From a virus: 64,000 nucleotides of DNA. The first letter of the stretch is position 1. Every line of letters starts with the position of its first letter. Under the pieces are notes generated by a model. It worked only from the letters and a program-made list of their open reading frames with translations. It was not told the DNA's origin and ran no database searches. Positions 4,901-59,099 of the stretch are shown piece by piece. The translations under genes were made by a program, and so were the position numbers. The DNA lies in the IMG/VR virus record IMGVR_UViG_3300045988_088815, positions 32,001-96,000 of that record; one strand, 5' to 3'.

Positions 4901-7900
4901 TACCGACATCGCCAAAGCCCTTTCCGATGCAAGAATGGCACAGGAGACCGCAAACGGGAAAATGAAGGTGTTTAGCGTTCAGCCTACGACACCTTATCAG
5001 GTTGGCGATATATGGGTTAATGCCACTTATCCTTCTGACGGCACTACCTACAAGAATGAGGTATTGCGCTGTCAGACCAACAAGGCAGCAGGTTCTCAGT
5101 TCGCCATCGGTGATTGGATTAAAGCATCTAAATACACCGATGATACCGTTGCCAACGCAGCCAAAAAGGCAGCAGAAGATGCTCAGAAGGCGGCACTGAC
5201 CGCACAGACGGACATTAAGAACCTCGGAAAGACGGTCACTGATAATAAGAAGGAATTCGATAATTATGTTACCGATGGCTACCTAGAGCCTTCCGAGATT
5301 GCGGCAATGGCGCAGGATTCTAAGCGACTTGAGGATGATTTTGCGGCTGCACAGAAGTCGTATAATGAGGTGAAGGATGCAGAGGTACTGAAGGACACCA
5401 AGGAACTCACTGACCTCAACACCGCTTTTGCTACCCTCACGAGTGCCAAAACGGAACTCATCAAGTTTCTTTCAGATATATCTAAAAGATACAATGAGAC
5501 TGATACCGACGGCAAGGCTGCTATCGTCTCAGCCGTGGGAACGAAGTTCACCAACTTCCAAAGCGCATATTCTGCCTTCTATGACAAGCTGGGTTTGGCA
5601 AACGCATATATCACTAGGAAGATATATGGTGACTTGAAGCAGAATATCACAGACCTCGCAGGTTACAAGTATCTCAAGGATGCGCTCGGTCAGACTACAG
5701 ATATTGACGGTGGTCTTGTAATGACAACGCTCCTTGCGCTGAGAGACGGAGACGGAAACGTTCAGAGCGGTATCAACGGAGCAATAGACCCAAATAGAGG
5801 AAAGAAGAGTATCGCAACATGGTGGGGCGGTCAGATGGTGGATAAGGACTATAATAGCGGAAATCTTACCCCTGCAACCTCCCTCATCCGCTTCGATGGC
5901 TCTGGCTATCTTGCCAATGGTGCTATCTGGTGGGATGTGAGCGGAAAGGTTCACGCAGACCCGACATCGTTTATCATCAGCGAAAAGAATCTTGGCGCAT
6001 ACCTCATCTTCTTCGAGCCGACTTGGAAGGCAGGAAGTGCAGGAACGAGCGTTGCCGACCTTGTGTCTTTGAAGCCAAACGCACCATTCTCTAAACTTGG
6101 TGTATCGGGCGATGCTACCTTCGAGGGCGCAATCTCCTTCCATGGCATTAAGCTCACGTATGATTCCACAAACAAGGCTATCAAGATTGATGGTAATCTC
6201 TATGCCACAGGCGGTATCACGGCATACGGAGCAGGAGCATCTACCACGGGCGGTGGTGGCGGCTTAAACGGCAGTGTGAAGAGTTATTCAAGTGCCTTGA
6301 AGCTTACATCAGAATCGCTGTCTGAGATAGCTTCTGCCTACTCCATCAAGGCTCTTGATTCTCGTATCTCTAGCCTAGAAGGAGGCTCGGCTATGAACGT
6401 TAGCGTTAGCGGTAGTGGAAACGCAGTGACAGCCATCAGTAAGAGCGGAACGACTATCATCGTGACAAAGGGAACAACGTTTTTGACTTCGCATCAGAGC
6501 CTTGCGAGCTACCTTACTAGGACTGACGCTGCCAGCTTGTATCAGCCAAAGGGAAATTACCTTACCGCACACCAATCGCTCGATGGTTATGTAAATGCAA
6601 TAACAACAAGTGGAAGCGGTAATGCTATCACGTCTGTATCTAAAAGCGGAAAGGGTATTACATTTACTAAAGGTGCTACATTTTTAACTTCTCACCAAAG
6701 TCTTGCTAACTATTATACCAAAAGTAGTGTAGATTCACTTCTTAGTGGTAAGTCGGCAACTAGTCATACACATAGTGTTAAGATTAACGGTGTTACTAAA
6801 ACTATTGCAGCTACTGGTGGAACTGCTGTAGATTTAGGAACTTATCTTACTTCTCATCAAAGTTTAGCAAATTATGTTACTATTAATGATAGTAGACTTA
6901 GTGATAGTCGTTATCCTAAATTTGCTAATAATACTTGGTATTTAGTAGGAGATGACGCTTATATTGGAGACCACAATATTGGTGGTACGTTTTGTATTAA
7001 ATCTGCCAATAATGTCAATGTAAGTGGTATAGCAATATATAATAGTGACGAAACTAAAGTTGCTAAACTATGGTTTGATAATACAAACATAAACCTTGAT
7101 AAACAACTTGTTATGAATAACAAGCGTATTTGGATTCAAGGTGTCGGTACTGCTGGAGGTAATAATAATAGACTTACTCTTGTAGCAGGTATGCCTAGCG
7201 GATTAGCATATAATACTTCATGCCGTGGAACAATTCTTTATTCTAACGGTATAGCATTTGCTGACCCATATAATGGTAATTCAAATAATGATAGTGGATG
7301 GATTAGACATTTAGAAACTTCTGCTAATAGTGGAACTTTAGAAATAGCGGTAGGTGATGATGCTTCAAATGAGCAAATTCATTTTAGATGGTATAATACA
7401 AATTCTAGTGCAGAAACTATAGCACACGATATAACTGTTCCTAGAGCTACAGGTACTTTAGCTTTAACTAGTCAAATACCTACTACTCTTCCTGCAAATG
7501 GAGGTAATGCTGATAAATTAGACGGTTATCATGCTAATGGACTTCTTACTGCTCTATCTAATTCTGATAAGGGAATTAGTATAACAGTTGGTGGAACTAC
7601 CAAAAGTATTTCAAATATTAGTGTTAATTATGCTAGTAGTGCTGGCAATGCTGATACTGTTGATGGTTATCAAGTTAATGGCGGTAATGTTGCACCCTAT
7701 GGACATATACCTAGTATAGAAAACGATGGAGTAATGGAAGTAGGTAAATATATTGACTTTCATAATGATAATAGCGGTAAACATGATTTTTCTACTAGAT
7801 TACAAACTACTGGTAATTATGGAAATTCAGTTTATTTGCCATCGCATAATGGTACATTAGCGTTAATTTCTGATAATGTAGCTTCTGCAACCAAACTTGC

Positions 7901-8861
7901 AACAGCAAGAACTATTTGGGGTCAAAGTTTTGATGGTACTGGTAATGTTAATGGAACTATATATATAAACAATAGTGATTCTGAAAACGGAGCTATAATA
8001 TTAAATAATAATGTAAATGCTAATGCTCGTATATCAGCTATAAAAGACCAAGTAGTATTTAATACTGGTGCTGCTATTCGTTTTGGAGCAGTCGACTGGG
8101 AGTATAGTGATTGGGCTGGTCTTAAATATGATACTGTTGCTAATGCTATATATTTAGGTATAGCCGATGGAACTGTATTTAATTATTATTCTAATAAAAG
8201 AAGTAATGGTACACTTAAATTTCCAGGTATTACAACCATAACTCCTGATAGTGGAGCTAGAATTGGAGGTAGTGGTGGTGATTTATATTTAGGTAATGCT
8301 AATAATAGTAATTGGGTGAAAGTTCAAGATATATGTAGTCATAATGGTTCTAATTATTGGTATATATATCAAAGCGGTAATGCTCATTTTAGTAACATTA
8401 ATGTTGCTGGTACTACTACTATCGGTGGTAATACTACTATCGGTGGTAATTGTCTTGCTAAAGGTGGAGTTACAGCTTATCAATCTTCTGACATCCGCTT
8501 GAAGCAGGATTTGCGGAAGCTGGACTACTTGGGTATCATCAAGGCGATGGGTGGCACTTATGGCTTTGCTTGGAAGAAGGACAATACAAGGTCTATCGGT
8601 TGGATTGCCCAACACGTCTTGTGCAACCCTCACTTAAAGGACATCGTGGAGACGGACGAGAAGGGCTACTACAAGATAAACTACTGGTCTCCGAAGCTGA
8701 TTGCAACGGCATTTGGTGCTATCGAGCAGGTGGGCGATGAGGTCAGCAGGTTGAAGGCTCGGGTGGTCTTCCTCGAATCAGAGGTTCAGCGATTGAGTGG
8801 AGATAAGAAAGACTGCAACAAGAAGAGATTAGATAACAAGAATATTAATTCATTAAATTAG
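1938..8861 (+). CDS. giant tail fibre / receptor-binding protein (2307 aa) with C-terminal intramolecular chaperone (peptidase S74-like) domain
   Basis: Fibre repeats GNADKLDGYHANG and GNADTVDGYQVNG, plus KLATARTIWGQSFDGTGNVNG and a SHTHS His motif. The C-terminus SDIRLKQD...YGFAWKKD...IGWIAQ plus a coiled coil is typical of self-cleaving chaperone domains. Confidence 0.85.
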   Translation: MKTYKNIDIKYYDNDGNIHVRCSVPVTQDALVHYELMQSHYCKLSFKLYKPTYFLLGDFIDTPYGRFELIDLTKAKDNDTIGYSYEIQFDAYYRKFKNKILKYRPNTGSQEATFSLTSKISTHVEVIMKSLAYYAKLDKSYLYDPKFEGEGTDYTYVIDASVDANAAKLITYSNTSVLDAIANIAQTFECEWWFEGNILHFGTCENTNAIVDFRLNDNIVSMSSSQSQSTYANRVYAFGAARNLPSGYKNDADADITKDGVVEKRLMLPTSAECSDKNKQLLAENGFELKNGYIQVGGLHEDQYVEGVTTNDDIYPRNLIKTSNVTSYEKDVEDESTPEEGDYIKRTFYRVNSLTIVNDDGEKTGDMAFRKAYILSGKNLHIVFQSGSLNGMDFECEFNPDGVSEILKDDDGNPILKDGKEQINPKSQVFEIVANEDYGRFLPDTTLHPKDGDTFVLYNWDSTKLGDALVSAASNELLTDSIKNLKKSIIDPTTYTCTAEANYSFNQGRGNLHGVGDRVNLYNKGYDDSYRSSRVIGYEFSLDIPFDGAKYYVGEKPSYSRLNAMESKIEELVYNGQSYLNGNGGSGRSIYIIKSYDSITPTDYNVFSAKAVDEQRLNKTKDDTVKGTITWEKVQKFFSGLHVGNSNNENGGSWTPDAEGRSHLITDYLEVRMKAIFEELVINKTSTIGGKEIISPAGGVVAHKVEEVTVTYNNVSQKAYRCYFLAEQEGDAVDNDFAIGDQVRSESFNVRKGTYHKDGNHFYWRLVIGRDEDPVELEGKKYHYIDLSDTDCATASDVPAKGDVLNQCGNRTDVERQNCLIFSAVDTYSPSISLYHGINSYSFANREYVEYGVNKQNNKAFFNVYGDMYVGDRPTKENGYEGSSYIRYDSSTKQLSVKGKISAKSTVDGKELSQYFNKIAELQNQVDGAIETWFYDGVPTLENAPAISWKTDKDKEIHLGDLYYDNKTGKAYRFAKDSNTYKWTIITDTDIAKALSDARMAQETANGKMKVFSVQPTTPYQVGDIWVNATYPSDGTTYKNEVLRCQTNKAAGSQFAIGDWIKASKYTDDTVANAAKKAAEDAQKAALTAQTDIKNLGKTVTDNKKEFDNYVTDGYLEPSEIAAMAQDSKRLEDDFAAAQKSYNEVKDAEVLKDTKELTDLNTAFATLTSAKTELIKFLSDISKRYNETDTDGKAAIVSAVGTKFTNFQSAYSAFYDKLGLANAYITRKIYGDLKQNITDLAGYKYLKDALGQTTDIDGGLVMTTLLALRDGDGNVQSGINGAIDPNRGKKSIATWWGGQMVDKDYNSGNLTPATSLIRFDGSGYLANGAIWWDVSGKVHADPTSFIISEKNLGAYLIFFEPTWKAGSAGTSVADLVSLKPNAPFSKLGVSGDATFEGAISFHGIKLTYDSTNKAIKIDGNLYATGGITAYGAGASTTGGGGGLNGSVKSYSSALKLTSESLSEIASAYSIKALDSRISSLEGGSAMNVSVSGSGNAVTAISKSGTTIIVTKGTTFLTSHQSLASYLTRTDAASLYQPKGNYLTAHQSLDGYVNAITTSGSGNAITSVSKSGKGITFTKGATFLTSHQSLANYYTKSSVDSLLSGKSATSHTHSVKINGVTKTIAATGGTAVDLGTYLTSHQSLANYVTINDSRLSDSRYPKFANNTWYLVGDDAYIGDHNIGGTFCIKSANNVNVSGIAIYNSDETKVAKLWFDNTNINLDKQLVMNNKRIWIQGVGTAGGNNNRLTLVAGMPSGLAYNTSCRGTILYSNGIAFADPYNGNSNNDSGWIRHLETSANSGTLEIAVGDDASNEQIHFRWYNTNSSAETIAHDITVPRATGTLALTSQIPTTLPANGGNADKLDGYHANGLLTALSNSDKGISITVGGTTKSISNISVNYASSAGNADTVDGYQVNGGNVAPYGHIPSIENDGVMEVGKYIDFHNDNSGKHDFSTRLQTTGNYGNSVYLPSHNGTLALISDNVASATKLATARTIWGQSFDGTGNVNGTIYINNSDSENGAIILNNNVNANARISAIKDQVVFNTGAAIRFGAVDWEYSDWAGLKYDTVANAIYLGIADGTVFNYYSNKRSNGTLKFPGITTITPDSGARIGGSGGDLYLGNANNSNWVKVQDICSHNGSNYWYIYQSGNAHFSNINVAGTTTIGGNTTIGGNCLAKGGVTAYQSSDIRLKQDLRKLDYLGIIKAMGGTYGFAWKKDNTRSIGWIAQHVLCNPHLKDIVETDEKGYYKINYWSPKLIATAFGAIEQVGDEVSRLKARVVFLESEVQRLSGDKKDCNKKRLDNKNINSLN
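6408..6880 (+). repeat. in-frame protein repeats (GSGNAxTxxSKSG...TKGxTFLTSHQSLAxY; four HQSL units) inside the fibre gene
   Basis: TFLTSHQSLASYLT, YLTAHQSLDGYV, TFLTSHQSLANYYT and TYLTSHQSLANYVT read from the translation. Confidence 0.8.
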
Positions 8862-23023: not shown

Positions 23024-23374
23024 ATGAAAGAGTTAAGTTTTGATAAGCTATACGTAAAGTTTAGCAATTTATATTGTGAGTATCGTAGTAGAAAGCAATT
23101 CTTGAAGTGGTTGAAATCCTCAAAGAATCTTTCTGAAGAGTTGTTTGAAGTAACGCCAAGTGAAGGTGGTTCGTTTGACGTTGTGTTGTCTTTTGAAGAG
23201 ATAAAGGATGTATTCCCGATTATGGAGAATTCATTGCCTAAGTACGAAAACGATATAAAGCAAGTTCTTTTGGCTATAAAGGAAATGGGACAGCTTGAAG
23301 TTGCAAAGATATGGCATGAGGATGATTGGGGTGATGGCTTTGTAGAGGATTTTTGTAAAACCCATGATATTTAA
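23024..23374 (+). CDS. hypothetical protein
   Basis: 116-aa ORF abutting the methyltransferase gene. Confidence 0.55.
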   Translation: MKELSFDKLYVKFSNLYCEYRSRKQFLKWLKSSKNLSEELFEVTPSEGGSFDVVLSFEEIKDVFPIMENSLPKYENDIKQVLLAIKEMGQLEVAKIWHEDDWGDGFVEDFCKTHDI

Positions 23375-24423
23375 TGAAGATACGGACGTTTGAACTTTGT
23401 GCCGGATATGACTCTCAACTGATGGCTTTGGAGCGGTTGAAGAAGAAATATTCTGATTTCGATTACGAGTGCATCGGATGGTCTGAGATAGAGCCAAATG
23501 CAATAGCTTTGCATAATGCTTGCTTTCCTAGTCTATCCGGCAAGAACTTTGGTGACATGACCAAGATAGATTGGAGCAAGGTAGCCGATTTTGACTTGCT
23601 GACATATTCAACACCTTGCCAGTCTGTTTCGCAAGCCGGAAAGCAGAAAGGAATAGAGGAGGGAAGCAATACACGTTCCTCTATCCTTTGGTTCACAAGA
23701 AACGCCATTATTACCAAGAGGCCGAAATACCTCTTGATGGAGAATGTAGAGGCTTTGGTTCAAACAAAGTTCATAGGGTTCTTTAACAAGTGGCGCAAGG
23801 AGTTAGAATCATATGGATATATCAACTTCGCTAAGGTGGTAAATGCAGCCGACTGCGGTGTTCCTCAGAACAGAAAGCGTGTATTTATGCTCTCTATACG
23901 AAACGATGGTGATAAGATAGATTATCATTTTCCGAGAAAGACAAAACTAGAGAAACACTTGGTTGATGTCTTGGAGGAAAATGTGGATGAGAAGTACTTT
24001 TTTAGTGATGACTTGCTATGTAAAGAGAAATTTGTATCGAATGAATGGAAAGAACCTATGAGTGCAGCTATAAGAACTCGTTCTGAGGGGAAGTGGATAA
24101 AAGGCGAAAAGCATAGTTCAAAGGTCGAACTTGGAAAGAACATAGCCAATACCATTACATCTGCGAGCAAGGACTCCTTGGTTGTGCTTGGAGAGACAAG
24201 GTTGCGCATTAGGCGTTTGACTCCGAGAGAACTCTTCCGCTTAATGAACGTTGACGAAGAATACATAGACAAGATGCTTGAAAGTGGAGTGTCGAAGTCA
24301 AGTCTTCAAAAGGCTGCTGGAAATTCGATTGTCGTAGCTTGCATGGAGAGGATATTCAAGGAACTTTGGTTTTCTGAGAGTAATGTTAAGGTCGCTGATG
24401 ATGGTCAGCTATGCTTATTTTAA
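23374..24423 (+). CDS. dcm: DNA (cytosine-5)-methyltransferase
   Basis: Motifs ELCAGYDS (I), TPCQSVSQAG (IV), MENV (VI), QNRKRVF (VIII) and GNSIVV (X). Confidence 0.9.
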   Translation: MKIRTFELCAGYDSQLMALERLKKKYSDFDYECIGWSEIEPNAIALHNACFPSLSGKNFGDMTKIDWSKVADFDLLTYSTPCQSVSQAGKQKGIEEGSNTRSSILWFTRNAIITKRPKYLLMENVEALVQTKFIGFFNKWRKELESYGYINFAKVVNAADCGVPQNRKRVFMLSIRNDGDKIDYHFPRKTKLEKHLVDVLEENVDEKYFFSDDLLCKEKFVSNEWKEPMSAAIRTRSEGKWIKGEKHSSKVELGKNIANTITSASKDSLVVLGETRLRIRRLTPRELFRLMNVDEEYIDKMLESGVSKSSLQKAAGNSIVVACMERIFKELWFSESNVKVADDGQLCLF

Positions 24424-29875: not shown

Positions 29876-31012
29876 ATGATTTCATACAAGTACAAGCTAT
29901 ATCGGACGAAGAAGACGAAGCATTTGGATAAGATGCTCCGTGAGGCTTGCTATGTTTGGAATCACGCTCTTGCCTTGCAGAAGAGATATTATAAGCTGTA
30001 TCACAAGTACATTCCAAGATTTACTATGTATAAGCATTTCTCTAAGTGTTATAAACCAACATTGCTTAATTGTCAAACAGTTAGGGAGGTGTTGGATAGA
30101 TTGGATATATCTTACAAGCGTTTCTTCAAGCATGATGCGAAGCGTCCACCAAAATTTAAGAAAGCAATAGAATTTGGTTCATTTGCCTTTCAACAAAATG
30201 GCTATTCCCTTAGTGGAAACGAGTTTGTGATAAACAAGATAAAGAAGTCATTTAAGTTCTCTCTGAGCCGTCCCTACGATGGTAAGGTCAAGAGGGTGTC
30301 GGTCAAGCGAAACAAGTTGGGCGAGTACTTTATCGTCCTTTGCTTAGACAAGCAAGCCGAGTCTTACGGAAAGTCACATGATGGTGCATCCGTGGGCATC
30401 GACTTTGGATTGAAGAAGTACATGACTTTGAGCGATGGGCGTGAGATTGATAATCCTCAGTTCCTTAAAACTGACTTGTTGGAGCTTAGACGCAGGTCTC
30501 GCAACCTCTCGAAGTGCAAGAAGGGCAGCAATAACCGCAAGCGCAAGAAGCTGGAGTTGGAGCGATTGTATCAAAACATCGTGAACAAGCGTTCCGATTT
30601 CCAGTGGAAGATGGCGCATGAGTTGTGCAAGCGTTATGACTTGATTTGCTTGGAGGATTTGAACTTGGAGGGAATGAAGCGTAATTGGGGACGCAAGATG
30701 TCTGACTTGGCTCATGGCGATTTCGTTGTGAAGTTGGAACACGTTGCGAAAAAATATGGCGTTCAGGTTCATAAGATTGACCGATTCTTCCCTTCGAGCC
30801 GCCTTTGTACTTGTGGTTATAAGAATGATAAGCTGTCATTGAGTGATAGGGTTTGGACTTGTCCTATTTGTGGTGCAGTTCATCCTAGAGACCTCTTTGC
30901 AGCTGAGAATATACTTCGGCAGGGCATTGCCGAATTGGGTAGTGGTAGTAAGCCGTCCGAGCAATCGCAAGGGTGCAGCCACGTTAGTCACCCAACAATT
31001 CCTTGCAAGTAG
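29876..31012 (+). CDS. tnpB: TnpB (OrfB) RNA-guided nuclease
   Basis: RuvC motifs GIDFGLK, CLEDLNL and HPRDLFAAENI, plus the zinc finger CTCGY...CPICG; typical YKYKLY N-terminus. Confidence 0.9.
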   Translation: MISYKYKLYRTKKTKHLDKMLREACYVWNHALALQKRYYKLYHKYIPRFTMYKHFSKCYKPTLLNCQTVREVLDRLDISYKRFFKHDAKRPPKFKKAIEFGSFAFQQNGYSLSGNEFVINKIKKSFKFSLSRPYDGKVKRVSVKRNKLGEYFIVLCLDKQAESYGKSHDGASVGIDFGLKKYMTLSDGREIDNPQFLKTDLLELRRRSRNLSKCKKGSNNRKRKKLELERLYQNIVNKRSDFQWKMAHELCKRYDLICLEDLNLEGMKRNWGRKMSDLAHGDFVVKLEHVAKKYGVQVHKIDRFFPSSRLCTCGYKNDKLSLSDRVWTCPICGAVHPRDLFAAENILRQGIAELGSGSKPSEQSQGCSHVSHPTIPCK

Positions 31013-31963: not shown

Positions 31964-32074
31964 AAAGAAACACATTAAAAAGTTTGCATATTTCGGATAT
32001 TCTTTGTATCTTTGCATTGTAATTAAGAAACAAGGTTACTAATTTAAAAAAGGTGAGACACACCACAAAAACTG
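31964..32074 (+). promoter_or_regulatory. promoter/leader cassette copy B (-7 at 32007, leader motif at 32052)
   Basis: The 64-nt core differs from copy C at a single position. Confidence 0.7.
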
Positions 32075-35343: not shown

Positions 35344-35520
35344 GTAGTATTGTTAACGATTTTAGGAACTATCTTTCTGATAGTTAGTGCAATATTTTGG
35401 TCAGAAACGCCAAAGTTGAGAACAGTAAGTATTGTAATTGCGACAGTGGCAGCAATACTTATGACCTTATGTTATGTAGGCTCTGTGCTTGCACAATATA
35501 TGATAGAATTTACGAAATAA
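35341..35520 (+). CDS. small two-TM membrane protein (59 aa)
   Basis: Hand translation MVVLLTILGTIFLIVSAIFW...IVIATVAAILMTLCYVGSVL. Confidence 0.45.
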   Translation: MVVLLTILGTIFLIVSAIFWSETPKLRTVSIVIATVAAILMTLCYVGSVLAQYMIEFTK

Positions 35521-35521
35521 T

Positions 35522-35563
35522 TAACTAACCATCCTGCAAGGGATATAAATAGAAGAGAATATG
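35522..35563 (+). repeat. intergenic unit U2 (hairpin, GGGATATAAATA, AGAAGAGAATATG)
   Basis: TAACTAACCATCCTGCAAGGGATATAAATAGAAGAGAATATG. Confidence 0.6.
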
Positions 35564-36343
35564 AAGGAATTAAGAAAGAAAACATTTAAGAATGGTGTCG
35601 TGTATTGCCTTCAATTAGAAGATGGTTTCCTTGTTGAAACGACAGATACATTCTTGCCTTATTACACCAAAGATGCAATAGGCAGACATCAGAATAAGCT
35701 CGACAACAATGAGCTTGGCGACCGCACGGAACGTTGGATGATAGGAGTATCTACAATGAGTGGGTGTCCAGTAAGATGCAAGTTCTGTGCTACAGGCAAC
35801 ATGAAACGTTATCGCAATCTTACGGCAGAAGAAATTGTTGAACAGGTTGAATTTGCCATCAACAAGGCAGGTGCTGACCCAAGCAAAGCAAAAGAGTTTA
35901 AGATTAACTATACTCGTATGGGCGAGCCATTCCTCAATATTGATGCAGTCAAGGATGCTATCCGCATTATTACTGAGAAATACCCAAATACTCATCATTA
36001 CGTATCAACGATTGGCATTAAGGGAAGCGATTTCTCTTTCATTAAGGGAAATATTACGTTACAGATTAGCTTACATTCATTTGATGATGACAAGCGTAAT
36101 TGGTTGATTCCTTACAAGAACAAGATGACTATTCAAGAGTTAGGTCAGATTCGCACAGAAAGCAATCTGAAGACTACAATCAATCTTACACTTGTTGACA
36201 CTTCCGATTTTGATGCAGAAAAGCTGAAAAAATGGTTTGATAAGGAGCATTTCTTCGTGAAGTTGTCTCCTATTAATGTGAATAACATATCAGAGAAAAA
36301 TCACCTCGGCAATGGTGTTGTAGAAGGAATTAATTTAGTATGA
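35561..36343 (+). CDS. RlmN/Cfr-family radical-SAM methylsynthase core, C-terminally truncated and lacking the resolving Cys
   Basis: VET..., GVSTMSGCPVRCKFCATG (CX3CX2C in the RlmN context), RNLTAEEIVEQV, RMGEPFLN, STIG, LQISLH and KLSPIN align by eye with E. coli RlmN residues ~100-320. Confidence 0.8.
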   Translation: MKELRKKTFKNGVVYCLQLEDGFLVETTDTFLPYYTKDAIGRHQNKLDNNELGDRTERWMIGVSTMSGCPVRCKFCATGNMKRYRNLTAEEIVEQVEFAINKAGADPSKAKEFKINYTRMGEPFLNIDAVKDAIRIITEKYPNTHHYVSTIGIKGSDFSFIKGNITLQISLHSFDDDKRNWLIPYKNKMTIQELGQIRTESNLKTTINLTLVDTSDFDAEKLKKWFDKEHFFVKLSPINVNNISEKNHLGNGVVEGINLV

Positions 36344-37107
36344 AAAAGGGTATTTTCAGATATAGAATTATCACAAATCTGAATTGCAACATGAACGAAA
36401 GTACAGGAGTAAACGGAAATTGTTACTTCTGCTACCAAAAGTTTAAGTCACCATTGCGACTGGATTGTGATAAGATGGAGGAAACTTTGAAGAAGGTTGG
36501 TGTTCTGAAAAGAGCAACTATCATGGGAGGCGAAAGCTTGCTCAATCCAGATTTGGTAAAGATTGTAAAGATAGTCAGCAACTATACATCTGATGGTATC
36601 TGTCTTGTTACAAATGGAATACTGCTTAATGAGGACATCATCGTTGCATTGAAAGATGCCGGATTAACTGAGGTTGCTATCAGCGTGTCTTCTATCGAAC
36701 AGTACGAAAGACGTAGAGATATGGCACTTCTGTGTAAGGAGATTATTCCAAACACAAGAATAAACATTCCTAAGTGCAAGGAAAGTTTGAATCCACAACT
36801 ACTGAAAACAATACTATCAGATGGTTTCTATAGCATTGTATGCGAAGATTTACAGGCAAGGTATGGTGAGATAAGACTCCCAGATGGTTCTGTAAAGGTT
36901 GGTGATGACGGATATGGATTCTATGATTACAAGTGGAATGGACATACATTTGGAGTATTTGGCAATTATGGGAAGTACAACAGAAGCGATATTATCATAA
37001 CTCCTCTTGGAAATTTCTGTGATTGGGAAAAGTATTGCAAGGCCGTTAAGAACAATGAGCTTGTAAGAAGAAATAATCATATTGATGATGACAAAATTGT
37101 GCATTGA
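36340..37107 (+). CDS. second radical-SAM enzyme (MoaA/SPASM-like core) with spaced cluster motif CX11CX2C
   Basis: ITNLNCNMNESTGVNGNCYFC, IMGGESLLNP and LVTNGILL; ATGA overlap with the upstream gene. Confidence 0.65.
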   Translation: MKKGIFRYRIITNLNCNMNESTGVNGNCYFCYQKFKSPLRLDCDKMEETLKKVGVLKRATIMGGESLLNPDLVKIVKIVSNYTSDGICLVTNGILLNEDIIVALKDAGLTEVAISVSSIEQYERRRDMALLCKEIIPNTRINIPKCKESLNPQLLKTILSDGFYSIVCEDLQARYGEIRLPDGSVKVGDDGYGFYDYKWNGHTFGVFGNYGKYNRSDIIITPLGNFCDWEKYCKAVKNNELVRRNNHIDDDKIVH

Positions 37108-37528
37108 TTTCGGAAGTGGCTATAATCCAAAGGCTGGATATAAAACTTGCGATATAACAACCTTTCCACAATTGGATTTTCAGTATGATGGGAAAGATGA
37201 GATTGTCGGTCTTAGAGAAAAATCAGTAGATGTATTTTATCTAAGAAACGTTGTTCATCATATCCCAGATTTACAGAGAACTTTTATAACCTTGAAGAAG
37301 TATCTGAAGGTAGGTGGGAAGCTAGTTATCATTGATTGCAATAAAGGTCATTATAAGACAAATGTATTTCTTGACAATTTATGGTATAGATTTGTTGGCA
37401 ATAACAACGAAATCTTTATCAGTAAACAGTATAGAGATTACATTAACGTTTTGATAAAGTTAGGTTTTAAGCAATTATATTATAAATCATTTAAAGAAAA
37501 GGAGATTACTAAGTATGAATGCAATTAA
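37082..37528 (+). CDS. class I SAM-dependent methyltransferase
   Basis: CIDFGSGYNP (motif I) and VDVFYLRNVVHHIPD (Methyltransf_11-like). Confidence 0.7.
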   Translation: MMMTKLCIDFGSGYNPKAGYKTCDITTFPQLDFQYDGKDEIVGLREKSVDVFYLRNVVHHIPDLQRTFITLKKYLKVGGKLVIIDCNKGHYKTNVFLDNLWYRFVGNNNEIFISKQYRDYINVLIKLGFKQLYYKSFKEKEITKYECN

Positions 37529-37634
37529 GAATCAATTGGAAAAGATGGGCTACGATTATGCAGTAGCAATCGCAACAAAGGCTGAAATTGAGAATGGAGC
37601 TGCTTGTGGTCAGCTCGCTATTATTTGTGAGTAA
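37515..37634 (+). CDS. 39-aa peptide equal to the detached RlmN/Cfr C-terminal segment with the catalytic Cys (AACGQLA)
   Basis: Hand translation MNAIKNQLEKMGYDYAVAIATKAEIENGAACGQLAIICE. Compare E. coli RlmN [31 protein letters not shown]. Confidence 0.65.
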   Translation: MNAIKNQLEKMGYDYAVAIATKAEIENGAACGQLAIICE

Positions 37635-37635
37635 G

Positions 37636-37689
37636 TAATTAACCACCCTCTCCTTGGCAACAGGGAGAGGGTAAAAAGAAGAGAATATG
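37636..37689 (+). repeat. intergenic unit U3 (hairpin, GGGTAAAA, AGAAGAGAATATG)
   Basis: TAATTAACCACCCTCTCC...GGAGAGGGTAAAAAGAAGAGAATATG; the ends match U2. Confidence 0.6.
37646..37671 (+). terminator. hairpin closing the radical-SAM operon
   Basis: 8-bp stem CCCTCTCC / GGAGAGGG. It is followed by an A-rich rather than T-rich tract, so terminator activity is uncertain. Confidence 0.45.
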
Positions 37690-38539: not shown

Positions 38540-38743
38540 ATGACAAAGCAAGAAGCAATGGCTTTCGCTATCAGCGTAGGAAAGCCGATAAGGCACAACT
38601 CATTCTCAAAAGGTGAGTTTGTTCGATATGAAGGAAAGGAGTTAGTTGATGAAGAAGGAACTATCCTTCCTCAACAAGAGTTTTGGGCTATCCGTTCAGG
38701 TGGCTCTTGGGAGAATGGATGGGAAGAATATAATGATAATTGA
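38540..38743 (+). CDS. hypothetical protein
   Basis: 67-aa ORF. Confidence 0.5.
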   Translation: MTKQEAMAFAISVGKPIRHNSFSKGEFVRYEGKELVDEEGTILPQQEFWAIRSGGSWENGWEEYNDN

Positions 38744-51760: not shown

Positions 51761-54700
51761 ATGGCAGAATTAAGATTCGATGTCAAAGCGAATTTCGAGG
51801 AGGTTACGAAACTTCGTTCCGAGTGTGAAAAGTTGAGGGCTGAGTTATTGAAGACCAATAAGTCTACCGACCCAGCTATTGTTGCGGATTTGACGGAAAA
51901 ATATGCGGATGCTAGCAATCGCTTAAAGGACTTGACACAAGCTGCTTCAAGAGCCGCTTACGTGATGTCTTCCGAGTTTAATAAGAAGATGCAAGCAGCC
52001 GCAAGGGAAGTTTATAGCTATGAACTTCAAATGCAAGCTACCAAAGACCGAATAGAGAAAATCCAACAGCAAATCACGAACAAGAGATTAACTCTTGGAG
52101 TTACAACGGATAAGTCATCCATAGATTCTTTACAGAAGAATATTGACTATTTAAAAGGCTCTTTGGCAGGTCAAACAGCTCAGTTGAAGAACTTAGAAGG
52201 GGGTGCTGTCGGTGCTCGTCAGACCTTGGAGAATATGCGGAATGAGTATGTTTTGTATGCAGGTTCAGCAAATCCGGCAAAAGAGGCAACAAATATGTTG
52301 ACCGATAGCATGAGCCAAATGATAGAACGTATGAAGTCAGCTCCGACTGCTGGAGAAGGAATGACTAGTTTGTTCCAAAGAGTTACTGGCGATGCTCACA
52401 TGCTTTCGGCAACATTACTTGGTGGCTTAGGATTTGAACAACTGGCAGGTAGTATCTTTAATACTCGTTCCCAATTCCAGCAACTTGAAATATCTTTCAA
52501 TACCATGCTTGGTAGTGCGGATAAGTCTAAGCAATTGATGGACGAACTTATCCAAACGGCAGCTCATACACCTTTCGATATGTCCAGCATTACGGGTGGC
52601 GCAAAACAACTTTTGGCATACGGAACGGAAGCGAAAGATGTTAACAAAACCCTTGTCCAGCTTGGTGACATTGCTTCGGGCTTGAACATTCCGCTTGGAG
52701 AACTTGTTTATCTTTATGGAACGACCGTTTCGCAAGGAAGAATGTTCACAATGGATTTGCGTCAGTTCATGGGTAGAGGTGTCCCATTAGCAGAAGAATT
52801 GGGTAAAATCTTACACCAAAACACAACGGAGGTTCAAGAGTCTGTTTCCAAGGGTAAAGTGACATCAGACATCTTCAAGGAAGCTATCGCCAACATGACG
52901 CAAGCAGGTGGACGCTTCGGAGGCTTGATGGAGCAACAATCAAAGACATTGGAGGGTCAGTGGAGTAACATTGGCGATTCCATCCAGCAAGCGTTCAACG
53001 AAATCGGCAAAAAATCCGAGGGCGTGTTCTCTAGTGGATTGTCAATTATTTCTGCTATGGTAGAGAATTGGCAAGAGGTAATAAAAGTTATTGGTGTAGC
53101 TACAATAGCTGTTGGTTCTTATCGTGCATCGTTAATGGCGGCTGCTTCTATTCGCAAAGCTGAGGAAGCGCAACAAGCCGATGATATGATGAAGGGAATT
53201 GATGCAGAAATCAAGCGTTTGCAAGACCTAGAGAACTCAAACTACAAGTCGCTGGGTAAGGACAAAAAGCAAGAGCGAGTAAGCAAACAACAAGACTTGG
53301 CAAGTATTGTTGGAGATACTGCTGTGTCCGATGACTTTGTAAAGGCAAGGTTAGATGCAGCCGAGCAAGAGGGCGTTATTTCGGCACAAATGCGTTCCCA
53401 ACTAGAGACGAAACGTGAACTTTTACAGGCTCAGCAACAAGCAACAGCACAAAGCCAGATAGAACTTGATGAAGAAAAAAGAAAGACCGAGGAACTTCGT
53501 CAACAAAAAATAGAGTCTCTTAAAGATGATTTGAAGACTACTACGGAGAAAATATCAAATCTTGATGATAGGGATGTAGAGTTGGCTAGACAATATACAT
53601 CAGCTTTGAATGATTTACAAGATGCCCAAGATGCCTTTGCTGAGGCTCAAAAATTGGTTGAGGAAACTGCTGGTGGCGCAAACTTGGCTTTTGATGCAGA
53701 GGGTAATGCCGTGAATGCGCTAGAAGCAAAAGAACGTTTGGAAACGGCAACAAAACAAGTGAATGCTGCTCAAACAAAGATTTCGACCATTGAAAGCGAA
53801 CGTAAGACGATTGCTCAAACAAAGGAGAATTTAAGTAAGCAACAGGCTACGATACAAAATAATATTAACACTGTTTCTCAAGCTTCCAATACCACTGCAA
53901 AGAAAGCTGGGATATTGGCGACAACAACAGCCACTATCAAAAATGCGCTTTATGCAGCAGGTACAAAATATACGACTACGGTAGTTAATCTTTTTTCTAG
54001 TGCGGTAAGAAGTAGTGGAAATGCCTTGAAGAGTTTATGGGCGGCAATGGCTGCTAATCCGATAGGTGCATTGATAACACTGGGAACAACTTTGTATTCC
54101 GTATTTTCTATGTTTGGAGACGAGACTGAAGAAATTTCGGCAGATACAACACATTTTGGGGAAACAACAAGTTTGACCAGTAAAAAGGTTGAGACATTGA
54201 TGAATGTGTTGAGAAATACGAATGAAAGTACTGATGCACATAAAAAAGCAAAAGATGAACTTATTGGGGTATATGAACAATATGGAATAAAATGCGACAA
54301 TGAAAAGGATAATTTGGAAACGTTGAAAAATAAGCATGACGCTTTTATTGCTTCTTTACAATTAGAAAATGCTGAACGAGAAAAAGCTAACGCTTTGATG
54401 TCTATATCTTCTCAATATGAGGAAGCAAGGAAAAACCTAGATAAGGATTTTTCTGATTCACTAGGTGGTAGTTGGCTTGATTTCGGACAACATATTGATA
54501 AAGAAGACATATCAGCTGTACAGATGATGTTTAATTCACTTGTTTCTGATGATGCGTTGACTAAGATAGACTCTTTAAGGCAGAAAATGGATTCCGCAAA
54601 GAAAGGAACATTGGAATATGCTAATGCCGCACAAGAATACGATGCTGCTCTTCGCAACCTGTTAGTTCCTTTTGAGGAATGGGGTAAGAAGATGGGGTAC

Positions 54701-57700
54701 AATAGTTTCGTGATGGCAAGTTTGCGAAGTTCGATATTAAAGCATATAGATAGTATAAACTCTTTGAATGAAAGTTACAAAAAGGCAGAGGACGCAATAT
54801 ATAAAGGAAGCACAGCGACTGTTGATTGGAATAACTCCCAAGCAAAGGCTCGTTGGATAGTAAACAAGAACAAGCAATCAATCCAAGAATTGGTAGAGCA
54901 AACTGATAATCTTATCAATTTATGGAATAAAGAATATGGGTTGAATTTAAAAATTCATTATGATGATTCGGAAATTCCAAATTGGATGAAATCTATGACA
55001 ACGAAGGAGTTGCGAAATTTAATTTCAAGGAGAGAGGCGGATATTTTACAACAGGAAAATCACGAAAAGAAAACTGGGCATAAGTTGGTAACACGTTCAG
55101 GAGGTAAGTTTAGGTCAAGAACGGAAAACCAAACGGATGTCGCAATGGCGAAATCTATAATTCAATCACGTATACCAAAGAGTAGTACAACAACAAAATC
55201 AAATACAGCCCATACTACTCCAAAGAAAACAGGTACAACGGATGACCCACAAGCAAGAGCGTATGAACGCAAGAAGGCTGAGGAGGACTATTCCAAGTCT
55301 ATTTCATCCTATTCGGAGAAAGCTATCCAAGATATGACCAAGAATCGCATCAATGCGATGAATGAGGGTTATAGCAAGGAATTGGCTCAGATTACCGAGA
55401 ATGCCGACAAGGAGAAAAAAGCGGTAGAAGATGGTATAGACAAATTGGTTGAGGCTAGGAAAAAGCGTGACCAAGCTGTTTGGGTTAATTCCGGCAAGGG
55501 TCGTAAGGCTAATATGTGGAAACAGAGCAAAACCAATGAAGAGTACAAGAATGAGGTTTTGAATGAAACCATGAAGGATAGCAAGGGTAATCCGGTTAAG
55601 GTCAATGGTATGAATATGACCATAGGCATGAGTGTTGCTAATCAGATGAATGCAATTCGCGATAAGGCGGTAAAGCAGAATGAGGATGTGCTTGCTAAAG
55701 AAGCGCAAAGCATGTACGATTATCTGAAGACTTATGGCACATTCCAGGAGCAGAAGTTAGCTATTGCTGCCGATTATGCTAAGAGGATTAGCGAGGTTGA
55801 AAACTCTACGGATTCGGACTCAAGCAAGCAATGGAAGATAAAGTCTTTGAAAGAAGAGCAGAAGAAAGAGACGGATTCGGTTGAGGCTAGTGCTATTATG
55901 CAGAAGATAGACTGGTATCAAGTCTTCGGAAATGTTGGTGGCATTATGAAAGATGCGCTTGTTCCTTTATTGGCAGATCTGGATAAGTTCGTAGGTACGG
56001 ATAAGTTCCAAAATTTGGGTGCAGACCAGCAGAAGAGTATCGTTGATGCTATGCAGAATATCCGTAATTCGATTGGCAATACAAGTGATTTAGGTTGGAA
56101 AGACCTTGCAAGGGATGTTGTTGCTTATCAGGATGCTCTGAAGAATGCGAAAATTGCACAAGAGGAATACACGAAAACGGAAACTTTGCTTATACCTCGT
56201 ATTAAGGTTTTGCAAGAACAGATTGAGAGTGCGAAAAAGTCGGGCAATGTTGCAGAGCAAACAAGGCTACAAGAAGAATTGAATAAAGTTCAAGGTCAGT
56301 TAGCGGAGTCCGGAAAGAAGATTGTTACGGCTAACACAAAAGTTCGTACTAGTGGTCAGAAGTTGGCTCAAACGACACAGAATGTGACACAACCGATTTC
56401 CGCTATCCATGAGTTCCTTTCTACTTCTGGACTATCCGATTTGGCATCTCTTTGGGATAGTTTTGACCAACTTAAAGGTGGAATTGACGGATTGAAAGCT
56501 TTAAAGGAGGCTAAAAATGCGGCTGACGGACTGAAGGATATGGGTAAGGAAGCCGCAGATGCAGCCGCAGCCGCTGGCAAGAAAGCTGGCGATGCGCTAA
56601 GTGAAGGATTGTCAAAAGCCGGACTTATAGGCCAAATTGTTGCTGCCATTTTGAAGATACTTGATGTTTTGAAGGATGGTATCGGAACATTGATTAGCAG
56701 CTTGATTGATACAGTTCTGAATGCGGTCAATGGTATATTGAAGAACATTCTAAGTGGTGAGTTTATCACACAGATAGGAGGGTCTTTGGTAAGCGGTATC
56801 GGTAATATTCTCAATACAATCTCGTTTGGTGGCTTCAATAGTTTGTTTGGAGTAGGTGGAAACGCAAAAGAAGTAAACCGGACTATAGACAAATTGACGG
56901 CTAGGAATGAAATCTTGACGGATGCAATAGACAGATTACGTGACTCTATAGACAAGACTAGTGGTATCAAAGCCGTAGAAGACTCAGAAAAAGCTGAAAA
57001 ACTTCAAAAGGAAAAAGAGCAAAACCTAAAGGACATCATGGTGGCACAAATGGGTTATCATGGCTCTCATGGAAGTTTTAACCGTTATTTCCGAGGATTT
57101 TCGCAAGAGCAAATCAATAAGGTGTCTGAAGCGATAGGTAGACAATGGAATGGAAACCTAAGCGACATACGGTCTGCTGATGAAGCTAATGCGTTGTTGC
57201 AAAATCCTGATATTGTTAACAAGATTCAGAACACTGGTAAGGGAAATTATGGAGGAAGAGTCCTCGAAAAGTTGAAAGATTATGCGGCTGAGGCAGGAAC
57301 ATTAGAGGATATTGCTGATGACCTAGCAGAAAGCTTGACGCAAATATCTTTTGATAGTTTGAAGAGCGAGTTCATAGATACTTTGATGGATATGAATTCC
57401 TCTGCTCAGGACTTCTCTGATAATTTCTCCAAGATGCTTATGCAAGCCGTTCTGAAAGCTAAGGTAGATGATTTGTTGGGTAATGATATGCAAGCATTCT
57501 ATGATGAGTGGACGGAGCGAGCTAAGGCAAATGGTGGCAAATTGTCTCAGACGGATATTAATGAATTGAAGGGAAGGTACGATGAAATGGTTCAAGAAGG
57601 ACTGAAGATTAGAGATGAAGTAGCCGAAATAACTGGTTACAAGCAATCTTACGAGCAGTCTGCGTCTTCCGGTTCTTTTGAATCCATGAGCCAAGATACA

Positions 57701-58024
57701 GGAGAAGAGTTGAATGGTCGTTTTACAGCGGTGCAGATCGCCACAGAGGGAACGTATGAGGAAGCAAAGCTCATAAATACCAAGTTGGATGCTATTGCGG
57801 CTCGTGATGGTGGCGCAGAGGGTAGCTTACTAACAGCTAGCGTGAATACTATTATGGGTAATGTAGGCAATATTTGGTTAGCCGTTGATGAGGGAAGAAC
57901 TATTCTTGCCCAAAGTCTGATGTACTTGCAGTCGATTGATGAGCGACAAGAGCGATGGCATAAGCCTATGTTGCAAGCATTCAATGATATACACGAATTG
58001 AAAGATAAAATGAGTAGATTGTAA
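51761..58024 (+). CDS. tail tape measure protein (2087 aa)
   Basis: The TP901-type core FNTMLGSADKSKQLMDELIQTAAHTPF...AKQLLAYG...LGDIASGL...GRGVPLAEELGKIL, with long coiled coils and three hydrophobic/Gly-rich segments. Confidence 0.85.
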   Translation: MAELRFDVKANFEEVTKLRSECEKLRAELLKTNKSTDPAIVADLTEKYADASNRLKDLTQAASRAAYVMSSEFNKKMQAAAREVYSYELQMQATKDRIEKIQQQITNKRLTLGVTTDKSSIDSLQKNIDYLKGSLAGQTAQLKNLEGGAVGARQTLENMRNEYVLYAGSANPAKEATNMLTDSMSQMIERMKSAPTAGEGMTSLFQRVTGDAHMLSATLLGGLGFEQLAGSIFNTRSQFQQLEISFNTMLGSADKSKQLMDELIQTAAHTPFDMSSITGGAKQLLAYGTEAKDVNKTLVQLGDIASGLNIPLGELVYLYGTTVSQGRMFTMDLRQFMGRGVPLAEELGKILHQNTTEVQESVSKGKVTSDIFKEAIANMTQAGGRFGGLMEQQSKTLEGQWSNIGDSIQQAFNEIGKKSEGVFSSGLSIISAMVENWQEVIKVIGVATIAVGSYRASLMAAASIRKAEEAQQADDMMKGIDAEIKRLQDLENSNYKSLGKDKKQERVSKQQDLASIVGDTAVSDDFVKARLDAAEQEGVISAQMRSQLETKRELLQAQQQATAQSQIELDEEKRKTEELRQQKIESLKDDLKTTTEKISNLDDRDVELARQYTSALNDLQDAQDAFAEAQKLVEETAGGANLAFDAEGNAVNALEAKERLETATKQVNAAQTKISTIESERKTIAQTKENLSKQQATIQNNINTVSQASNTTAKKAGILATTTATIKNALYAAGTKYTTTVVNLFSSAVRSSGNALKSLWAAMAANPIGALITLGTTLYSVFSMFGDETEEISADTTHFGETTSLTSKKVETLMNVLRNTNESTDAHKKAKDELIGVYEQYGIKCDNEKDNLETLKNKHDAFIASLQLENAEREKANALMSISSQYEEARKNLDKDFSDSLGGSWLDFGQHIDKEDISAVQMMFNSLVSDDALTKIDSLRQKMDSAKKGTLEYANAAQEYDAALRNLLVPFEEWGKKMGYNSFVMASLRSSILKHIDSINSLNESYKKAEDAIYKGSTATVDWNNSQAKARWIVNKNKQSIQELVEQTDNLINLWNKEYGLNLKIHYDDSEIPNWMKSMTTKELRNLISRREADILQQENHEKKTGHKLVTRSGGKFRSRTENQTDVAMAKSIIQSRIPKSSTTTKSNTAHTTPKKTGTTDDPQARAYERKKAEEDYSKSISSYSEKAIQDMTKNRINAMNEGYSKELAQITENADKEKKAVEDGIDKLVEARKKRDQAVWVNSGKGRKANMWKQSKTNEEYKNEVLNETMKDSKGNPVKVNGMNMTIGMSVANQMNAIRDKAVKQNEDVLAKEAQSMYDYLKTYGTFQEQKLAIAADYAKRISEVENSTDSDSSKQWKIKSLKEEQKKETDSVEASAIMQKIDWYQVFGNVGGIMKDALVPLLADLDKFVGTDKFQNLGADQQKSIVDAMQNIRNSIGNTSDLGWKDLARDVVAYQDALKNAKIAQEEYTKTETLLIPRIKVLQEQIESAKKSGNVAEQTRLQEELNKVQGQLAESGKKIVTANTKVRTSGQKLAQTTQNVTQPISAIHEFLSTSGLSDLASLWDSFDQLKGGIDGLKALKEAKNAADGLKDMGKEAADAAAAAGKKAGDALSEGLSKAGLIGQIVAAILKILDVLKDGIGTLISSLIDTVLNAVNGILKNILSGEFITQIGGSLVSGIGNILNTISFGGFNSLFGVGGNAKEVNRTIDKLTARNEILTDAIDRLRDSIDKTSGIKAVEDSEKAEKLQKEKEQNLKDIMVAQMGYHGSHGSFNRYFRGFSQEQINKVSEAIGRQWNGNLSDIRSADEANALLQNPDIVNKIQNTGKGNYGGRVLEKLKDYAAEAGTLEDIADDLAESLTQISFDSLKSEFIDTLMDMNSSAQDFSDNFSKMLMQAVLKAKVDDLLGNDMQAFYDEWTERAKANGGKLSQTDINELKGRYDEMVQEGLKIRDEVAEITGYKQSYEQSASSGSFESMSQDTGEELNGRFTAVQIATEGTYEEAKLINTKLDAIAARDGGAEGSLLTASVNTIMGNVGNIWLAVDEGRTILAQSLMYLQSIDERQERWHKPMLQAFNDIHELKDKMSRL

Positions 58025-58085: not shown

Positions 58086-58168
58086 ATGGAGAAAGTTTTT
58101 GTTTTTCACAATATAGATAAGTGTTGTTAAACTGAGTGCTAATTTTTGGTAGAGTGGAATATAATAGT

Positions 58169-58176
58169 TATCTTTG
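58169..58176 (+). promoter_or_regulatory. -7 promoter box TATCTTTG
   Basis: TAnnTTTG match 26 nt before ATG 58203. Confidence 0.45.
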
Positions 58177-58202
58177 TAGTCGATTTCAAAACTTATAAGG
58201 AC

Positions 58203-59099
58203 ATGAAGATATTAGAACCAAAATATGAAATCCTATCCCAAGGAGAGGGTATGGATGGAGTTTACAAGCAGATAGAGCTGTGTGGTCGCACATGTTATGC
58301 GTCAAGTATGAAGATAGACAAAGACAGCGCAAAGCCTTTCGTTGAGCGTATGGTAAGCAGCAATCATCTTGCCATGTGTGAGCATGGAACGATTTACCTC
58401 CATGTAGCCTATGAAGAAGGATTTTTTGTACCGGAGTCTTTATTGGTCAAGCACTATCGTGAGAACAAATATTCAAAGGTGATGCAGATTGGCAGTGACT
58501 ACTATATCACAACCAACTACAGAGTGATAGTTGAAAATAACTGGTTTGAGGATTTGGACTATATTTGCGAGCCTACGGAATGGCATGAGAAGCGAATAAC
58601 AGTCCGCTTTACTACTCAGATTGCGGTAAGTAGAGAGGCTAACAGACATCGTGTAGATTCCGTAGCGGAACAAAGCACTAGATATTGCAACTATAGTAAA
58701 GATAAGTTCGGAGGCGAGATTGCTATCAACAAACCAAAGTGGGTTAGCGATGATGATGCGGTTAATCCATTGTCTTTTGATGGTGGAACATTTGTTGACC
58801 TATCAAAGAACATCGGTAGTTATGAACATTGGAGTCCGGTAGAAAAATGGTGGTTTGCTAATAGAGTATGCGAAATGATGTATTTGTCTTTGGTCAAGGA
58901 TGATGGTCTTAAGCCACAGGATGCGAGAACAATACTTCCTCTTGATACCAACACGGAGTTGATTCATACCGCATTTGTGAGCGATTGGAAGCATTTCTTC
59001 GAGCTGAGAAGCCTTGGTACGACCGGAAAGCCTCATCCAGATATTGAGGTCTTGGCAACACCATTGATGAATGAGTTCAAGGAACGAGGTTTGATTTAA
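58203..59099 (+). CDS. thyX: flavin-dependent thymidylate synthase ThyX
   Basis: ThyX signature RHRVDSVAEQSTRY (RHRxxSxxxxSxRY); start moved to the ATG after the promoter box. Confidence 0.85.
   Translation: MKILEPKYEILSQGEGMDGVYKQIELCGRTCYASSMKIDKDSAKPFVERMVSSNHLAMCEHGTIYLHVAYEEGFFVPESLLVKHYRENKYSKVMQIGSDYYITTNYRVIVENNWFEDLDYICEPTEWHEKRITVRFTTQIAVSREANRHRVDSVAEQSTRYCNYSKDKFGGEIAINKPKWVSDDDAVNPLSFDGGTFVDLSKNIGSYEHWSPVEKWWFANRVCEMMYLSLVKDDGLKPQDARTILPLDTNTELIHTAFVSDWKHFFELRSLGTTGKPHPDIEVLATPLMNEFKERGLI

Follow-up and report, generated by a model that had tools for sequence, protein, structure and literature searches.

The 64,000-nucleotide stretch of viral DNA analysed here (positions 32,001 to 96,000 of IMG/VR record IMGVR_UViG_3300045988_088815; "the window", in whose numbering coordinates are given unless a locus is named) carries an operon whose first and last genes belong to a widespread phage two-gene system. 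Sequence comparison firmly supports the view that this system encodes a split enzyme of the RlmN/Cfr type, in which a radical S-adenosylmethionine (SAM) core, the product of open reading frame (ORF) 1, receives its Cys355-type loop in trans from a small separate peptide, the product of ORF4. The methyl-carrier cysteine is absent from the ORF1 chain and is supplied by Cys31 of ORF4, and the column of the second catalytic cysteine, Cys118 of E. coli RlmN, is occupied by an invariant glycine. In RlmN, C355 carries the methyl group and C118 is indispensable as the base that sets off resolution of the crosslink between protein and RNA (PMC9692996). With glycine invariant in that column, the family cannot work exactly like RlmN. 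The reading we prefer, at a probability of roughly 45%, is a class-A-like radical-SAM methyl(ene) transferase made of two components, whose intermediate is resolved by a non-cysteine route and which turns over catalytically.

ORF1 has a core with the CX3CX2C [4Fe-4S] motif, and RlmN and Cfr head its matches in NCBIfam, the PDB and Foldseek. Pfam returns only the generic radical-SAM family PF04055 (E 1e-11). The NCBIfam ranking is led by RlmN TIGR00048 (E 2e-22), followed by several Cfr and RlmN models; equivalog cutoffs are not reached, with 79.6 bits against a cutoff of 290 for TIGR00048 and ~54-57 bits (E ~1e-15) against cutoffs of 468-550 for the Cfr models. Because the TIGR00048 match is confined to profile positions 102-299 of 355, ORF1 is best described as RlmN-like but without either the N-terminal domain or the C-terminal module. 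A PDB sequence search returned RlmN 6fz6 (E 6.6e-15), the E. coli RlmN entries and Cfr. A single-sequence AlphaFold2 model of core plus peptide was uninformative, with a predicted local distance difference test score (pLDDT) of 38, and a model built from a 57-row alignment was used instead. It has a mean pLDDT of 91.6 and a predicted template modelling score of 0.91, and its best PDB matches, in nearly full-chain alignments, are RlmN 6fz6 (TMq 0.74), E. coli RlmN (0.71) and Cfr (0.58). The peptide is modelled as helix, strand and loop (pLDDT 74-88) and forms part of the RlmN-like fold.

That a glycine stands in the Cys118 column had been predicted from the window's sequence, and both HMMER comparison with RlmN structures and a multiple alignment with RlmN and Cfr-like sequences, which the prediction had proposed as a check, uphold this assignment. 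The segment at 35741-35788 translates to IGVSTMSGCPVRCKFC, of which 35744-35788 encode Gly62 to Cys76 of ORF1. HMMER aligns ERWMIGVSTMSGCPVRCKFCATG with DRTTVCVSCQVGCAVGCSFCATG of 6fz6, placing 'IGVSTMSGC' opposite 'VCVSCQVGC' and Gly62 opposite the Cys118 equivalent; against the E. coli C118A mutants 4pl1 and 5hr6, Gly62 lies opposite the mutated Ala. It falls in the Cys118 column again in a MAFFT alignment of 22 sequences (six split-family members, fused relatives, canonical-length RlmN/Cfr-like proteins and E. coli RlmN). The E. coli sequence in that alignment agrees with literature numbering in its length of 384 and in the positions of C118, C125, C129, C132, M176 and C355. Among close homologues showing the motif, 118 of 118 have Gly at the -7 position, and the residue is invariant in all members of a diverse 30-sequence sample reaching down to 38-46% identity. 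The only conserved core cysteines in this sample are the cluster ligands C69, C73 and C76, in agreement with the earlier observation that no cysteine lies near Gly62's position. Core Cys16 (17 of the 30 sequences) and peptide Cys38, which is variable, were considered as compensating residues and ruled out. An invariant glycine in so strongly conserved a protein indicates functional design, not decay, and on these alignments the lack of Cys118 is a family trait and not a defect.

The companion claim, that the Cys355-type loop lies on a separate 39-residue product, also held: ORF4 is a genuine gene. When appended to ORF1 it aligns in MAFFT with the whole C-terminal module of E. coli RlmN (helix, G-[YF] turn, beta-strand and Cys355 loop), of which this alignment makes it a true homologue. 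The back-translated pattern of its AACGQL motif has a single match in the window and none in 100 shuffles. An AAGGAG ribosome-binding site of its own indicates that the peptide is translated independently, and since core and peptide lie in different frames where they are adjacent, stop-codon read-through cannot join them. Across 84 related loci the peptide gene is nearly always downstream of the core, either adjoining it (~10-60 nt) or after a 1.1-1.3-kb insert; there is one copy per locus, never in tandem, and it is missing only at contig ends or in deletion derivatives such as L040. A profile search found at least 2,423 peptide clusters (clusters of peptide and core were counted at 90% identity), and the top 120 are all free-standing, at 39-73 amino acids. 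Conservation of the peptide exceeds that of the core, and it is under purifying selection: pairwise comparison of the central 23 codons in 35 distinct nucleotide versions gives 5,995 synonymous and 886 nonsynonymous differences, and Cys31 is invariant across these versions, with TGT and TGC both in use. The position of Cys38 ('IICE') is unconserved and holds C, T, A, G, S, I or L in relatives. A natural, circularly permuted fusion, P0125 (peptide, linker, core), is found on two independent contigs and keeps Gly in the Cys118 column; peptide and core thus work as one unit. It lies at 44-991 of L230 and 140-1087 of L231, followed by another radical-SAM gene of 239 residues.

Homologues of ORF1 form 2,219 clusters, mostly of ~260 amino acids. 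The top 120 are nearly all 260-262 residues long; extra length, where present, comes from N-terminal extensions or fusions upstream and not from a C-terminal module. A recent gene disruption or pseudogene can be rejected, as the 260-residue length and the separate peptide are kept in thousands of sequences and the peptide is under selection. The family is found in phages of Bacteroidota, Firmicutes and Proteobacteria, and both the pair and the glycine are present in three cultured phages: the crAss-like Kehishuvirus 'tikkala' of Bacteroides cellulosilyticus (71% identity), Moorella phage MTATph1 (43%) and Pectobacterium phage Arno18 (38%, with a 92-residue ORF between core and peptide). Core and peptide are WEU69814.1 and WEU69813.1 in 'tikkala', WPA89584.1 and WPA89583.1 in MTATph1, and orf59 and orf57 in Arno18. 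Their GenBank records annotate both genes as hypothetical proteins.

The loss of Cys118 extends beyond the split family. A survey of the superfamily with 150 representatives at the 50%-identity level separated the types listed in Table 1; no Cys118-less clade reaches any curated family cutoff. Those C-type sequences without the C-terminal motif that were inspected had a truncated or diverged C-terminus or a variant motif. The original prediction had named, as an outcome that would refute it, a family that generally lacks the residue and is known to turn over. The lack is indeed family-wide, in the form of an invariant glycine, and fused sister clades share it; the case for turnover is weighed below. 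I-type proteins (alignment A3) have at least 595 matches in species-representative genomes from many bacterial and archaeal phyla. In the loci surveyed for them (L085-L164) they belong to a conserved three-gene operon, in which an isochorismatase-like hydrolase (52 of 80 loci) is followed by a thioredoxin-reductase-like flavoprotein (61 of 80) and then by the RlmN-like gene; in P0239 the hydrolase is fused to the I-type protein. G2-type proteins (L165-L178, alignment A6) end directly after the C-terminal strand ('GF.YA.R') and lack both class A cysteines, and no CGQ peptide was found within 3 kb of their genes. Scans of viral contigs with single T-type and G2-type proteins gave no matches.

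Table 1. Types of RlmN/Cfr-like protein distinguished in the superfamily survey
Type	Residue in Cys118 column	C-terminal Cys loop	Architecture
C-type	Cys	fused xxCGQL C-terminus (24 proteins)	one piece
G-type (window family)	Gly	on separate peptide	split
T-type (P0181, P0203)	Thr	'AACGQ' kept	one piece; 'FLP' insert as in window family
I-type	Ile, Val, Met or Asn	'GSNCGQ' kept	one piece
G2-type	Gly	none	ends after strand

All clades that lack Cys118 and bear the Cys loop share a second change. The position of M176 is Thr or Ala and that of G177 is an invariant Arg (Thr118 and Arg119 in ORF1); Lys204 and Lys234 are also conserved in this signature, which is not seen in the Cys-containing proteins. 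M176 is thought to stabilise the thiyl radical that results on Cys355 (PMC9692996). The pattern is thus a coordinated rebuild of the very residues in charge of the late steps of the reaction, not a single lesion.

In the mechanism we prefer, the core would bind the [4Fe-4S] cluster and SAM, and the peptide would dock as the missing last beta-strand, bringing its flexible Cys31 loop into the active site in trans. By analogy with RlmN and Cfr, a first SAM would S-methylate the peptide cysteine and a second would be cleaved to the 5'-deoxyadenosyl radical, which would take a hydrogen atom from the S-methyl group. The thiomethylene radical so formed would attack an sp2 carbon in the substrate, for which a purine base, whether in RNA, in DNA or in a nucleotide, is the most plausible candidate. 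The adduct would be resolved without a Cys118-type thiol, through another base, water or a differently activated substrate. Where ORF2 and ORF3, the two genes between core and peptide, are present, their products would probably elaborate the same product. Homology, fold, split architecture, synteny, selection and the family-wide Gly are shown by the data, whereas the chemistry at each step and the kind of target are inferred. The AACGQL loop is nearly identical to that of RlmN and Cfr, and this suggests that S-methyl-cysteine and thiomethylene-radical chemistry is retained. Turnover is favoured because the loss of Cys118 is common to fused relatives, one of them cellular and housekeeping-like, and comes with a conserved replacement signature; such cellular I-type enzymes are unlikely to be single-use.

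Several points weigh against this mechanism. The Cys118 thiol of E. coli RlmN and the Cys105 thiol of Cfr are indispensable, and their removal traps a protein-RNA crosslink (PMC9692996). A literature search found no biochemical data for any Cys118-less relative. ORF1 lacks the N-terminal helical (HhH-like) RNA-binding domain, E. coli residues before ~85 being unmatched, and no tRNA genes were found in the window or in 19 of 22 further loci scanned.

The trapped mutants suggest a different outcome, in which the reaction halts at the thioether and leaves the peptide joined by a methylene bridge to a nucleic-acid base (RNA or DNA, of host or phage). The core would be reused and one peptide spent per event, and the adduct itself would be the output; it might, for instance, block a tRNA or rRNA, or mark nucleic acid or protect it. 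C118A RlmN is indeed caught as a covalent RlmN-tRNA complex (PMC9692996; PDB 5hr6/5hr7), the core has the invariant Gly and no other conserved Cys beyond its cluster ligands, and the peptide has a strong Shine-Dalgarno sequence for its own translation and is better conserved than the core; within the window's clade, split and Gly coincide. Outside that clade the two part company: the fused T-type and I-type proteins lack Cys118 as well, and the latter belong to a widespread cellular operon. The natural fusion P0125 keeps Gly, each locus has a single peptide gene with no tandem copies, and the active site is remodelled at T118 and R119, not merely short of one residue. Peptide tagging, which the original prediction offered as one of two hypotheses, has thus gained no specific support; it is chemically plausible, but we consider it unlikely. 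Its sharpest form, a 'warhead' peptide that is S-methylated, activated and welded by a reusable core onto a specific host or phage RNA or DNA base during infection, is slightly more doubtful.

Methyl transfer might also have been given up altogether, with the peptide cysteine donating or accepting a hydrogen atom or acting in redox chemistry, as in radical-SAM epimerases or spore photoproduct lyase, while the 5'-deoxyadenosyl radical acts directly on the substrate; a resolving cysteine would then never be needed. The G2-type clades, which lack both cysteines, show that the fold can serve other reactions, the M176/G177 site is remodelled, and spore photoproduct lyase is among the weaker structural matches. 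We nevertheless hold this to be quite unlikely, for AACGQL is nearly letter-identical to the RlmN/Cfr motif, Gly-Gln included, and a retained methyl-Cys mechanism is the simplest explanation. The order of genes in the window (radical SAM, radical SAM, methyltransferase, small peptide) superficially resembles a cluster for a ribosomally synthesised and post-translationally modified peptide, in which the enzymes would modify the peptide by S-methylation or thioether formation and the modified peptide would be the active product. One related locus, L080, has another radical-SAM gene directly 5' of the peptide, with a weak best match to YydG, and the peptide is variable after CGQL with a conserved N-terminal part. 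However, the whole peptide is homologous to the RlmN C-terminal module and is modelled within the barrel, its CGQL core is invariant, and most loci consist of core and peptide only. Neither ORF1 nor ORF2 has a SPASM or RRE match above noise in Pfam or NCBIfam, and no protease or exporter/transporter lies beside the pair in the loci examined. A peptide that is the substrate is therefore improbable. The original prediction's other hypothesis, that a partner such as the second radical-SAM enzyme performs the resolution, is very improbable as a general answer, whether the function is assigned to ORF2 or to the methyltransferase. Both genes sit between core and peptide and hold that position down to 39-43% identity. 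Yet in most lineages, the cultured Bacteroides, Moorella and Pectobacterium phages among them, neither gene lies within 5 kb of the core, ORF2 homologues form 98 clusters and core homologues 2,219, and Gly62 is invariant with or without the pair.

The matches of ORF2 and ORF3 point to a second radical-SAM protein and a small methyltransferase. ORF2 matches PF04055 (E 3e-13) and is MoaA/viperin-like over its N-terminal ~120 residues only; the MoaA/viperin models score 40-50 bits against cutoffs of 180-325, with no full-length match, and a match to pVip is weak (E 3e-13). Among PADLOC defence models the core had no match and ORF2 only these weak pVip matches. The cluster motif of ORF2 is not CX3CX2C: it reads C-x11-C-x2-C in the window and C-x5-C-x2-C in L080 (8448-9191). 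ORF3 matches phrog_5399 (E 7.5e-27) and Methyltransf_11 (E 2.9e-6) and always travels with ORF2. The order core, ORF2, methyltransferase, peptide is kept at 39-64% identity, even with the most divergent ORF2 homologues, and this rules out a recent mobile insertion. The pair is, on this evidence, an ancient and optional accessory module, and being optional it is not a general solution to the missing cysteine. At 5783-7000 of L080, a 116-residue low-complexity ORF and a different, canonical radical-SAM gene of 288 residues (the one weakly matching the YydG epimerase) lie between core and peptide, and the ORF2-methyltransferase pair is found 1.2 kb further downstream.

Among known systems the best match in both sequence and structure is RlmN, the dual C2-methylase of 23S rRNA A2503 and tRNA A37 (PDB 3RFA, 5HR7, 6FZ6). 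The phage enzyme shares with it the CX3CX2C motif, the E105 equivalent (E26), the MGEP, SLH and R179 motifs and an almost identical C-terminal helix, strand and AACGQL loop. It differs in the invariant Gly for Cys118, Thr-Arg for M176-G177, the Cys355 module on its own gene, the lack of the HhH-like domain (~85 residues), a 24-residue insert before the Cys118 strand and its carriage by phages. Cfr, the 23S rRNA A2503 C8-methylase of antibiotic resistance (PDB 9P0P), has the same class A fold and Cys-loop motif, but its C105 and C338 are in one chain (PMC9692996), and nothing in the phage system points to resistance. Like the phage genes, Cfr and the transposon-borne, RlmN-like MrmA of C. difficile (PMC11983580), also of class A fold, are found on mobile elements. 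The thiol-free genotype that freezes a methylene-bridged adduct in the laboratory (C118A/S RlmN, C105A Cfr) is the natural state of the window's core; unlike in those mutants, the change is an ancient one that never varies within the family and goes together with further changes in the active site, and the trappable cysteine is on the peptide and not on the enzyme. T-type and I-type proteins share with the window family the [T/A]-R-M-G-E-P signature, the xxCGQ loop and the absence of an N-terminal domain, but they are single polypeptides and the I-type is chromosomal. For tagging only, there is a conceptual analogue in Ada/MGMT, whose sacrificial cysteine is used once per reaction; it is not homologous and its chemistry is different.

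As judged from these comparisons, the class A fold and the Cys loop are kept while three defining features fail: both cysteines in one chain, Cys118 itself and the N-terminal domain. A literature search, which was not exhaustive, found no description of a phage split RlmN-like enzyme or of a Cys118-less class A relative, and our searches found no function for the T-type or I-type clades. A large phage family thus puts one class A cysteine on a separate gene product and dispenses with the other, in a class otherwise defined by two in one chain. If cysteine-independent resolution exists, the accepted class A mechanism needs revising; if the phage makes a peptide-nucleic-acid adduct, this would be a new kind of macromolecular modification. 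The analysis also provides function-oriented annotation for two 'hypothetical protein' genes common in gut phages, crAss-like ones included, and flags a related, widespread cellular family, the I-type, with the same missing cysteine. Cultured phages that carry the pair make the question directly testable.

The four genes lie on one strand in a closely packed operon (Table 2).

Table 2. Features of the split-enzyme operon, in window coordinates
Feature	Position	Strand	Description
ORF1	35561..36343	+	260-aa RlmN/Cfr-like radical-SAM core; first gene of operon
Gly62 codon	35744..35746	+	column of E. coli RlmN Cys118 (resolving / general-base cysteine)
CPVRCKFC	35765..35788	+	Cys69/Cys73/Cys76 [4Fe-4S]/SAM cluster motif; invariant
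Thr118-Arg119	35912..35917	+	columns of E. coli RlmN Met176-Gly177 (alignment A5)
ORF2	36340..37107	+	255-aa second radical-SAM protein; optional accessory gene
ORF3	37082..37528	+	~147-aa minimal class I SAM methyltransferase; probable ATG start 37085; optional accessory
AAGGAG Shine-Dalgarno	37499..37504	+	10 nt 5' of ORF4 ATG; sequence read directly
ORF4	37515..37634	+	39-aa peptide MNAIKNQLEKMGYDYAVAIATKAEIENGAACGQLAIICE; detached RlmN C-terminal module (helix, beta-strand, Cys loop)
Cys31 codon of ORF4	37605..37607	+	column of RlmN Cys355 (methyl-carrier cysteine)
Hairpin CCCTCTCC-loop-GGAGAGGG	37646..37671	+	directly after ORF4 stop; read from sequence; weak evidence

Similar intergenic elements lie at the two ends of the operon (35520-35560 and 37632-37688). 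Both share TAATTAAC..ACCA.CCT...GGGA..TAAA.AGAAGAGAATATG, the hairpin of Table 2 being in the downstream copy, and they may be boundaries of the module or operon, or regulatory sites. A promoter and terminator scan of the operon gave nothing useful above shuffled background and did not call the hairpin. The window's phage is tailed, as it encodes a portal protein and a 2,087-residue tape-measure protein (51761-58024), and near-identical contigs in IMG/VR range over ~35-130 kb, plus one of 222 kb. Megablast of the operon region (3 kb) against phages in GenBank found just two matches, each of 55 nt; the protein-mode search was the informative one.

The core-peptide module is placed among early or accessory genes. 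Two natural deletion variants occur in otherwise near-identical phages: L040 (5001-5922) has the core cut at about codon 250 and joined to an ORF like that at window position 38740, and L005 (5780-6268) matches ORF2 over its first 163 residues only, with no methyltransferase or peptide detected. The module is therefore dispensable. In L226 (1731-4194), a distant four-gene representative, the operon lies directly 3' of NUDIX and NAMPT/NAPRTase genes (phage NAD salvage), with a CYTH-domain gene nearby. Dispensability, accessory position and this one NAD-salvage neighbourhood would fit, speculatively, a role in host takeover or counter-defence. A general link of the pair to tRNA genes is unsupported, flanking tRNAs being found in a single lineage (L001/L073). 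L001 is a temperate relative with a cI-like repressor, ERF, NinB and NinG; its tRNA genes, at 3476-3549 and 4929-5009, are a tRNA-Met(CAT) and an odd one directly after the peptide gene to which ARAGORN assigns the 4-base anticodon 'catc'.

Elsewhere the window encodes a transposase (phrog_506, E 2.5e-88; 29876-31012), a DNA methyltransferase (phrog_116; 23374-24423) and a thymidylate-synthase-like gene (58146-59099), and a second giant ORF besides the tape-measure gene spans 1938-8861 (2,307 residues). In some relatives of the window's phage, an HNH_3 homing-endonuclease-like ORF directly precedes the core and shares its frame in the gene call (P0004, 438 residues).

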